A stretch of DNA of 9,792 nt from a virus (taxonomy: Duplodnaviria; Heunggongvirae; Uroviricota; Caudoviricetes). Both the position numbers and the translations under genes were made by a program. Positions 7,560 to 8,576 of this stretch are shown here, piece after piece (position 1 is the stretch's first letter; the number at the start of each line of letters is the position of its first letter). The stretch lies in the IMG/VR virus record IMGVR_UViG_2606217116_000003. The stretch is one strand, 5' to 3'. Under the pieces are notes generated by a model. It was not told the origin of the DNA, did not search any database, and worked only from the letters and a program-made list of their open reading frames with translations.

Positions 7560-7780
7560 TTTGCGGGTCCTTTCCGGCGATCCGACAGGTTACGGGGCGG
7601 CGACCTCGCGGGTTTTCGCTATTTATGAAAATTTTCCGGTTTAAGGCGTTTCCGTTCTTCTTCGTCATAACTTAATGTTTTTATTTAAAATACCCTCTGA
7701 AAAGAAAGGAAACGACAGGTGCTGAAAGCGAGCTTTTTGGCCTCTGTCGTTTCCTTTCTCTGTTTTTGTCCGTGGAATGA
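7560..7780. other. Lambda-type cos site: cosQ region, cosN (GGGCGGCGACCT at about 7595-7606), cosB with Nu1-binding repeats
   Basis: Sequence ...CGACAGGTTACG|GGGCGGCGACCTCGCGGGTTTTCGCTATTTATGAAAATTTTCCGG... matches the recalled joined right and left ends of phage lambda. An 11-bp inverted repeat GGAAACGACAG/CTGTCGTTTCC lies just upstream of Nu1. Confidence 0.85.
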
Positions 7781-7783
7781 ACA

Positions 7784-8329
7784 ATGGAAGTCAACAAAAA
7801 GCAGCTGGCTGATATTTTCGGTGCGAGTATCCGTACCATTCAGAACTGGCAGGAGCAGGGAATGCCCGTTCTGCGAGGCGGTGGCAAGGGTAATGAGGTG
7901 CTTTATGATTCTGCCGCCGTCATAAAATGGTATGCCGAAAGGGATGCTGAAATTGAGAACGAAAAGCTGCGCCGGGAAGTTGAAGAACTGCGGCAGGCCA
8001 GCGAGACAGATCTCCAGCCAGGGACTATTGAGTACGAACGCCATCGACTTACGCGTGCGCAGGCCGACGCACAGGAGCTGAAAAATGCCAGAGACTCCGC
8101 TGAAGTGGTGGAAACCGCATTCTGTACTTTCGTGCTGTCGCGGATCGCAGGTGAAATTGCCAGTATTCTCGACGGGATCCCCCTGTCGGTGCAGCGGCGT
8201 TTTCCGGAACTGGAAAACCGACATGTTGATTTCCTGAAACGGGATATCATCAAAGCCATGAACAAAGCAGCCGCGCTGGATGAACTGATACCGGGGTTGC
8301 TGAGTGAATATATCGAACAGTCAGGTTAA
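7784..8329 (+). CDS. nu1: Terminase small subunit Nu1 (DLP12 NohD-like), 181 aa, intact
   Basis: MEVNKKQLADIFGASIRTIQNWQEQGMPVLRGGGKGNEVLYDSAAVIKWYAERD... is the lambda Nu1 winged-HTH N-terminus. Full length with normal stop, 190 nt downstream of cosN. Confidence 0.95.
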   Translation: MEVNKKQLADIFGASIRTIQNWQEQGMPVLRGGGKGNEVLYDSAAVIKWYAERDAEIENEKLRREVEELRQASETDLQPGTIEYERHRLTRAQADAQELKNARDSAEVVETAFCTFVLSRIAGEIASILDGIPLSVQRRFPELENRHVDFLKRDIIKAMNKAAALDELIPGLLSEYIEQSG

Positions 8330-8576
8330 CAGGCTACGGCATTTTGTCCGCGCCGGGCTTCGCTCACTGTTCAGGCCGGAGCCACAGACCGCCGTTGAAT
8401 GGGCGGATGCTAATTACTATCTCCCGAAAGAATCCGCATACCAGGAAGGGCGCTGGGAAACACTGCCCTTTCAGCGGGCCATCATGAATGCGATGGGCAG
8501 CGACTACATCCGCGAGGTGAATGTGGTGAAGTCTGCCCGTGTCGGTTATACCAGTAATGCTGTAGTGGCACACTAA
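8304..8576 (+). pseudogene. A: Terminase large subunit A, 5' fragment (about 83 codons) truncated by IS insertion
   Basis: [82 protein letters not shown] matches the lambda gpA N-terminus. It then diverges into IS-end sequence and stops. Confidence 0.88.

Follow-up and report, generated by a model that had tools for sequence, protein, structure and literature searches.

Packaging of lambda DNA starts at cos and requires both cosB and cosN; terminase remains on the cosB-bearing end and translocates that DNA (PMC4669245; PMC9026076), and packaging is finished at a downstream cosQ–cosN (PMC4669245). Use of the cos of a resident prophage by an infecting phage of the same specificity has been described by Feiss et al. 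(2015): after initiation at the prophage cos, the motor stalls at a full head and a tailless, non-infectious particle is left, or a crossover after initiation gives a recombinant phage instead. In the helper-packaging assay of the same authors, a repressed chromosomal prophage gives infectious particles solely because two cos sites lie in tandem. We found no publication on lambda docL particles, and the equivalent statement is that of Feiss et al. (2015). Helper-packaging work of this kind deals with 1–4 packageable passive prophages per cell. Lambda also transfers plasmids bearing cloned lambda cos (PMC6739421), and cos plasmids owe their packaging to replication and multimer formation. In PICIs, replication follows induction of the helper, cosB differs from that of the helper, and Rpp retargets the helper TerS; the cos-PICIs of E. 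coli use their different cosB together with Rpp to out-compete the helper. Among cryptic prophages, the closest described system is DLP12 (qsr′) of E. coli K-12. DLP12 was reported in 74% of 638 strains (PMC6379469), its excision in K-12 was reported (PMC4632033), and lambda recombinants that had taken up DLP12 nu1, R and Rz in K-12 were viable, with recombination junctions clustering at cos (De Paepe et al. 2014).

The stretch of DNA analysed here (the window, 9,792 nucleotides in full) very probably holds the cos–nohD–gpA′ segment of a DLP12-type cryptic lambdoid prophage at argU. The prophage would be a deletion derivative of a phage like PhiR30_1, and its cos and nu1 would be recent phage sequence and no mobilisation device. 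At least 80% of the whole window is covered in 31 complete E. coli chromosomes, and the best matches are 99.9% identical over positions 1–8560, ending there. The closest complete genome is that of strain KSC9, in which the matching stretch lies between fimZ/tRNA-Arg (argU) and ompT. Its annotation reads, in order, intD, a partial HTH gene, yfdT, a phage protein, yfdR, a DUF2303 fragment, a DUF968 fragment, quuD, a porin, essD, a partial lysozyme, rzpD, iss/bor, ylcI, nohD and a ‘phage tail protein’. In the parent contig of the window, fimZ, argU and the att core stand immediately to the left of int, with argU and the core (the argU 3′ end) 15–50 bp left of the window and attL just outside it. 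The right end of the window is the end of that contig (JNMM01000005.1, GCA_000700345.1), inside an insertion sequence. Location at the argU 3′ end, an IntD-type integrase, the fimZ–ompT interval, and synteny with both KSC9 and K-12 place the element in the DLP12 type.

All open reading frames from int to cos could be assigned (Xis, YfdT, DUF551, YfdR, the DUF2303 and DUF968 fragments, QuuD, porin, EssD, R′, Rz, Bor and YlcI). The left end of the prophage is formed by a 387-aa tyrosine integrase of the intD type (1–1164, minus strand), which matches Pfam Phage_integrase over 1–171 of 172 positions (E = 5.5 × 10−47) and differs from K-12 IntD by 3 aa. Overlapping the start of int is xis, a 123-aa excisionase-like open reading frame with an HTH_17 domain (1023–1391, minus strand; E = 1.2 × 10−8), which is identical over its full length to its counterparts in the complete phages PhiR49_1, Kati and PhiR29. 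The statement in the sequence-only reading that int and xis are apparently intact is thus borne out by a full-length Int with its full Pfam domain and by an Xis that is 100% that of complete phages. The Q antiterminator gene quuD (3444–3827, plus strand; Pfam Phage_antitermQ, 1–118 of 118; quuD in the KSC9 annotation) opens a late region that reaches nohD. Upstream of cos lies ylcI (DUF3950; 7201–7395, minus strand), as annotated in KSC9 and K-12 and as found with PF13132 on the called gene of the parent contig. The element is clearly defective: cI, cro, O and P are missing, as are head and tail genes, and R is cut by a 338-bp deletion. No repressor, replication or structural gene was found in the element by annotation, by Pfam or by mapping to PhiR30_1. 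In KSC9, attL and attR are both intact and 17.4 kb apart, with cos 9.7 kb from attR; no attR occurs there within 15 kb of attL, and it was found beyond ompT, like that of K-12. If otherwise like KSC9, the element here would be about 18.7 kb long with its insertion sequence.

The cos subsites were located by exact string search and by alignment of window positions 7200–8600 with circularised lambda, K-12 DLP12, KSC9 and phage PhiR30_1. A lambda-like cosN and cosB had already been described from the letters alone, and their coordinates proved accurate. Position 7595 of the window equals lambda bp 1. The nicking site cosN (7593–7608, plus strand; 16-bp extent according to PMC9026076) is identical to that of lambda and holds the 12-nt cohesive end GGGCGGCGACCT at 7595–7606. 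String matches placed cosB at 7644–7759 (plus strand), with R3 at 7644–7659 (lambda bp 50–65; PMC9026076), the IHF site I1 between R3 and R2, an inverted R2 at 7703–7718, and R1 at 7744–7759. Positions 7595–7731, which take in cosN, R3, I1 and R2, are identical to lambda bp 1–137, and the identity to lambda also covers the final 16 bp of its right end. The heptamer GGGTCCT at 7565–7571 (plus strand) is an exact match to lambda cosQ, which we take to be at 48473–48479, and its distance from cosN is as in lambda. cosQ is the termination subsite (PMC4669245). All elements of a lambda-type cos were observed directly: a 12-nt cohesive end in a partly symmetric cosN, the cosQ heptamer, and R3–I1–R2–R1 with R2 inverted.

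Differences from lambda are few. cosB has changed only in that a G (lambda G138/139) is missing from the R2–R1 spacer, which is 1 bp shorter, and the cosN–R3 spacing is unaltered; between cosQ and cosN there is a single substitution (lambda 48486 T>C). Both are common to K-12 DLP12 and PhiR30_1. Because a phage deposited as a complete genome has exactly this cos, the site is probably usable by a terminase of lambda specificity, a conclusion that draws also on the lambda × DLP12 recombinants obtained in K-12. Lambda and the window thus share the sequences of cosQ, cosN, R3, I1, R2 and R1 and the cosN–R3 spacing, and differ, besides these two changes, in that the window has no functional gpA and no second cos. 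Three minus-strand open reading frames over cos (7411–7668, 7681–7839 and 7685–8224) were rejected as spurious; the first spans the nick site, and PhiR30_1 has them as automatic ‘hypothetical protein’ calls only.

Directly to the right of cos lies nohD, the nu1 gene for the terminase small subunit (7784–8329, plus strand). Its 181-aa product matches Pfam Phage_Nu1 (PF07471) over all 164 positions (E = 3.9 × 10−101), so that a full-length Nu1 is indeed retained, as had been claimed. Nine codons differ from lambda nu1, seven synonymously and two non-synonymously (A75T and L132I), leaving 179 of 181 residues identical; the protein differs at one residue from K-12 NohD and at none from that of PhiR30_1. 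The N-terminal wHTH, the central oligomerisation region and the C-terminal gpA-binding region (domain limits from PMC9026076) are all present, and the recognition helix (17–24) and the wing (31–39) are unaltered. The 7:2 ratio of synonymous to non-synonymous changes shows purifying selection, which may have acted in the phage or in the host, and such a bias is to be expected of any phage gene. A scan of positions 6500–8700 gave no sign that nohD has a promoter of its own: with 5 promoter-like sites (3.0 ± 1.6 in shuffled sequence) and 2 terminator-like sites (2.7 ± 2.0), it did not exceed the shuffled controls.

Comparison with PhiR30_1 suggests where this sequence came from. PhiR30_1 (PV340558) is a deposited complete genome of 47,390 bp with E. 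coli C as host, written in the order of a prophage, with an IntD-type integrase at one end and ompT at the other, and bearing a full lambdoid gene set; no publication on its origin or viability was found, and its status is that of a GenBank record. Window positions 7564–8549 (986 bp) match PhiR30_1 19386–20371 exactly, and the 364 bp directly upstream of 7564 contain several differences; divergence in the adjoining upstream sequence is 2.5%. Chance matching is not at issue, because identity to phages is 98–100% across about 1 kb. Along the rest of the element, int–xis is 99.1% identical to PhiR30_1. An unrelated 2-kb block (yfdT, DUF551, yfdR and the DUF2303 fragment) then replaces exo–bet–gam–cI–cro–O–P–nin. 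Q, porin, S and the 5′ end of R are 98.7% identical; past the 338-bp deletion, which takes the remainder of R, come Rz and bor; and ylcI–cos–nu1–A′ is 99.1% identical. PhiR30_1 has exo/bet/gam, cI/cro/cII, O/P, nin, a full R, and A through Stf/Tfa, whereas the window has none of these. The prophage has thus been stripped of its region for immunity and replication, of the 3′ portion of the R lysozyme gene and, by a deletion from gpA codon 82 into a tail-fibre gene, of all genes for head and tail.

K-12 DLP12 shows the same general layout, cos–nohD–aaaD′–tfaD, at the same argU site within fimZ–ompT. The order quuD, porin, essD, rzpD, bor, ylcI, cos, nohD is shared, as are the missing G in cosB and a gpA truncated early and fused to DNA of the tail-fibre region; the integrases are 3 aa and the NohD proteins 1 aa apart. 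The two alleles differ in other respects. The left arm carries yfdT/yfdR/DUF2303 here but exoD–emrE–ybcK..rusA in K-12; in the window the porin gene is apparently uninterrupted, R is deleted, ybcV and ybcW are missing, and an IS3-family insertion follows the junction. The junction itself joins gpA codon 82 to stf here, and in K-12 about codon 103 to tfa. The locus is of a known and ordinary feature type, a DLP12-type cos and small-terminase remnant of E. coli, in a rare allele: a KSC9-type junction, present in 25 of 5,426 complete genomes (KSC9 and 24 others), combined with a strain-specific insertion sequence.

That the large subunit is destroyed had been recognised from the sequence, with the loss of gpA after about 83 codons ascribed to an IS element. 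The loss is real: gpA′ (8304–8549, plus strand) retains the first 82 codons of 641, all 82 residues as in lambda gpA, and Pfam GpA_ATPase is covered only over 3–42 of 247, so that neither the ATPase/translocase nor the endonuclease is left. The cause was misassigned. After gpA codon 82 the sequence continues with ACCAGTAATGC, which is not gpA, and KSC9 has the same bases there, which read on in frame as a tail-protein fusion gene of 348 aa that contains no insertion sequence. The IS-free junction of KSC9 reads ...GGTTATACCAGTAATGC followed directly by CAACGTG... In other E. coli, tail-fibre genes align from the equivalent of window position 8547 onward, and the old deletion junction can accordingly be placed at 8547–8560 (plus strand), with a TAT microhomology at 8547–8549 followed by 11 nt of the tail-fibre gene. 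On the PhiR30_1 map, the deletion starts at A codon 83 and reaches the 3′ part of stf, and with these roughly 21 kb all head and tail genes are gone. Elsewhere the breakpoints differ, the K-12 junction being found in 365 genomes and those of other genomes lying inside nohD.

The insertion sequence (8561–9792, plus strand; 1,258 bp if complete) belongs to the IS3 family, as judged from 100% identical E. coli copies annotated as IS3 family transposase with programmed frameshift and from an OrfA matching HTH_Tnp_1. Its left end, TGTAGTGGCAC..., starts at 8561, 11 bp past the gpA/tail-fibre junction; a matching right inverted repeat is found in a complete copy elsewhere, and window and contig stop 26 bp short of it. 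The open reading frame at 8304–8576 (90 aa) is made up of the 82 gpA codons, 3 2/3 tail-fibre codons and IS read-through. Exact matches to it were found only in its own contig and in a Logan contig of 1.4 kb, each of which stops within the IS, and the IS junction at 8561 is absent from the 5,426 complete E. coli genomes, whose best matches end at 8560. Since IS-free genomes carry the identical gpA/tail-fibre junction, the IS is a later, non-causal insertion beyond an older deletion. Truncation of gpA by the IS itself, through insertion or an IS-mediated adjacent deletion, might be suggested by its distance of merely 11 bp from the end of gpA homology, and a contig that ends in the IS leaves room for an extra IS-mediated deletion to the right. 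It is already refuted, however, by the presence of the junction and the next 11 nt in IS-free genomes and by the tail-fibre frame that runs on as a fusion gene in KSC9, and we assign it practically no probability.

How common such modules are was assessed in the same 5,426 complete genomes. cos and nohD together (770-bp query, at least 80% coverage) occur in 3,916 of them (72%), at a median of two places per genome. In about 60% of genomes the module is accompanied by a full-length A (at least 80% of a 2.7-kb cos–A query), and many of these copies are probably more complete prophages. In a spread sample of genomes, truncations ended at query positions 58–62, 111–114, 230, 713–715, 894–898, 982, 1034, 1775 and 1910, that is, within cosB, within nohD, and at early, middle and late points of A. 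Within this sample, the scatter looks like a continuum of stochastic decay with no protected module. Three deletion endpoints within about 330 bp to the right of nohD could hint at retention; an argument for selection on cos–nohD built on them was dropped, as sampled endpoints fall elsewhere too.

One might still suppose that cos–nohD is kept because it benefits the host, either as a decoy on which invading phages of lambda specificity waste terminase and proheads or through NohD upsetting their terminase stoichiometry, which would amount to a mild anti-phage function. The abundance of the module, the mostly synonymous changes in nu1, and the several independent deletions that end just right of nohD are in line with this idea. 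With 1–4 chromosomal copies per cell against many phage genomes, however, the expected effect is small. The genomes with full-length A, which probably hold fuller prophages, and the remnants truncated inside nohD or cosB also speak against it, and the exact 986-bp phage identity next to a 2.5% divergent upstream flank fits recent exchange better than long host selection. We regard a host benefit as unlikely. The 986-bp identity beside a more diverged flank is instead consistent with recent origin or recombinational refreshment: cos and the Nu1 gene may be intact either because they have not yet decayed or because they were refreshed by recombination with passing lambdoid phages.

A further proposal drawn from the sequence alone was that excision followed by helper packaging is conceivable. 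The remnant would then be a helper-dependent satellite- or cosmid-like element, excised by Int and Xis, and a lambdoid helper would package the circle by way of cos and Nu1. Part of this stands. The locus has an intact, phage-identical cos and intact Int and Xis; attL is present here, both att sites are intact in KSC9, and there are the precedents, cited above, of DLP12 excision in K-12 and of lambda transfer of cos plasmids. A lambda-specificity helper could plausibly start packaging here in trans, an already-known kind of event. Productive mobilisation, on the other hand, finds no support in a locus with a single cos and no replication genes. The contig stops short of the attR of this strain. 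The excised circle would measure about 17–19 kb (17.4 kb in KSC9, about 18.7 kb with the IS) and have one cos, and termination requires a second cosQ–cosN. As such a circle is single-cos and non-replicating, no packageable cos-to-cos concatemer is expected. A lambda head takes DNA of between roughly three quarters of a lambda length (48.5 kb) and slightly more than a whole one.

The supposed role of the resident small subunit does not hold. A helper of the lambda type comes with Nu1 and A of its own and needs nothing but cos in cis; resident Nu1 adds nothing, because a helper of lambda specificity supplies both subunits. For a helper of other specificity, Nu1 would have to bind the TerL of that helper via a specific C-terminal domain (PMC9026076). 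NohD, if expressed from the Q-dependent late transcript, would only duplicate the helper TerS.

Nor does the locus fall into the described classes of mobile elements. With cos PICIs (e.g. EcCICFT073) and SaPI-type satellites it shares the form of a chromosomal element with int and a cos cuttable by lambda-like TerL, and with pac SaPIs the encoding of a small terminase subunit. On the side of excision, int, xis and attL are present here, and attR was seen in KSC9 only. Unlike PICIs, the element has no replication module and nothing that would redirect packaging (Rpp, a distinct TerS, or a distinct cosB or pac); its cosB and Nu1 are those of a complete phage, and would equally be those of the helper. 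Repressor or derepression functions and capsid-remodelling (capsid-size) genes are likewise missing. As for cosmid-like replicons, no replication gene was found, a statement at the level of genes, a gene-free origin lying beyond the reach of sequence. Membership of the PICI/satellite and cosmid-like classes fails because replication, a distinct cosB and Rpp are lacking. Passive-prophage packaging and cosmid transduction are similar in that helper terminase acts in trans on a chromosomal cos that is repressed or does not replicate, but those systems become infectious through a second cos in the same orientation at a packageable distance, or through plasmid multimers, and neither is seen here. 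Satellite-like mobilisation of the element is not supported, and we give it very little credence.

We favour instead a remnant whose cos may be used, with an abortive or recombinational product, as we infer from published lambda biology. The terminase of an infecting or induced phage of lambda specificity would bind R3 and R2 via Nu1 and nick cosN. Because cosB and nu1 sit to the right of cosN, an orientation directly visible in the window, packaging would run rightward, away from the int–Q–porin–bor arm. The motor would move through nohD, gpA′, the IS, the tail-fibre remnant, ompT and host DNA past attR (envY–cus). In KSC9, the nearest relative, no second cohesive-end sequence occurs in the next 58 kb downstream of cos (ompT, envY, nfrA, cus, ent). 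In the present strain, a nearby second cos or a rearrangement may lie past the contig end. With no downstream cos, the motor would stall, leaving a non-infectious particle without a tail. Through the break at cos and the homology on its flanks, the locus would instead become both donor and recipient in recombination with such phages.

One arrangement would give the locus a more active part. A PhiR30_1-like phage in tandem at argU might mobilise half of the remnant, as a cos-to-cos hybrid of about 29–36 kb with the int–porin–bor or the ompT arm, or the cos might act as a decoy that lowers helper burst. Mobilisation of a half-remnant is conceivable, because circulating PhiR30_1-like phages have the identical cos and use the same argU att site. 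We consider either outcome highly unlikely; if one were true, decayed prophage cos sites would be active players and not debris.

Beyond annotation, the locus is of little importance. It is one more DLP12 cos–nohD allele, and most E. coli carry some form of it. That DLP12 nu1 and lysis genes work in lambda recombinants has been published, and the use of resident prophage cos by infecting phages has been discussed. What the analysis adds are three corrections to the sequence-only reading. The IS is a late bystander and not the cause of gpA loss, and packaging from this cos would head away from the int arm. Finally, because an intact 47-kb counterpart exists in the PhiR30_1-type phage, the remnant is to be read as a phage that decayed recently and as a partner for recombination, not as a satellite.

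Comparison with related elements showed that the left arm of the window (1404-3408), which carries yfdT, a gene for a DUF551 protein, yfdR (5'-deoxynucleotidase), a 5'-truncated DUF2303/yfdQ gene and a DUF968 fragment, matched neither K-12 DLP12 nor the DLP12-type lambdoid phage PhiR30_1. These genes were instead similar to the 'yfd' genes of the CPS-53 type. This pattern marks the left arm as a mosaic replacement for the entire early, immunity and replication region.

Downstream, between quuD and essD, an nmpC/OmpD-like porin gene with a called product of 365 aa lies on the minus strand (4016-5173). 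In K-12 this gene is split by IS5, whereas its counterpart in the window appears uninterrupted. The lysis cassette of K-12 DLP12 is functional according to reports, but at 5901-6516 of the window the R lysozyme gene rrrD retains only about 55 codons before a 338-bp deletion. Comparison with PhiR30_1 identified the lost segment as positions 16466-16803 of that phage, its removal fusing the R remnant to the start of Rz. As R is cut while the holin gene essD and Rz/Rz1 are kept, the cassette is broken in the window's lineage; it is likewise broken in KSC9, the closest complete E. coli genome. A further difference was found at 6890-7200: lambda, K-12 DLP12 and PhiR30_1 all carry ybcV and ybcW between bor and ylcI, but the window lacks both genes and has only a weak 112-bp match (83%) left.

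Rfam isrC matched 8629-8751 on the plus strand (150 bits, full model covered), inside the IS3-family element at its 5' end, where the match overlaps the start of OrfA. isrC is an Hfq-binding sRNA of Salmonella, and it would seem that this 'sRNA family' corresponds to the leader and 5' transposase region of the element. The element's ends were defined from a reference copy in E. coli E2863 (L007, 601-1858). The 3 bp flanking that copy differ on the two sides (TCT and GCC), so there is no obvious target-site duplication, and a small rearrangement may be associated with it.

The E. coli genomes H94, H95, H173 and H174 (e.g. NZ_AP023237, NZ_CP101240) represent a third remnant class, in which homology is lost approximately 40 bp short of the nohD stop (window position ~8290) and the sequence continues into a tail-fibre-domain gene. 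Further remnants end inside cosB or directly past cosN, a spread indicating many independent decay endpoints.

The PhiR30_1 record (PV340558, 1-47390) is a complete 47.4-kb lambdoid phage with the gene order of the DLP12 prophage, including genes for an IntD-type integrase, nmpC-like porin, bor, ybcV/W, ybcY and an alpha/beta hydrolase, with ompT at its right end. This record suggests that phages carry ompT and the porin as cargo, and that 'cryptic' DLP12 still has active counterparts in circulation.
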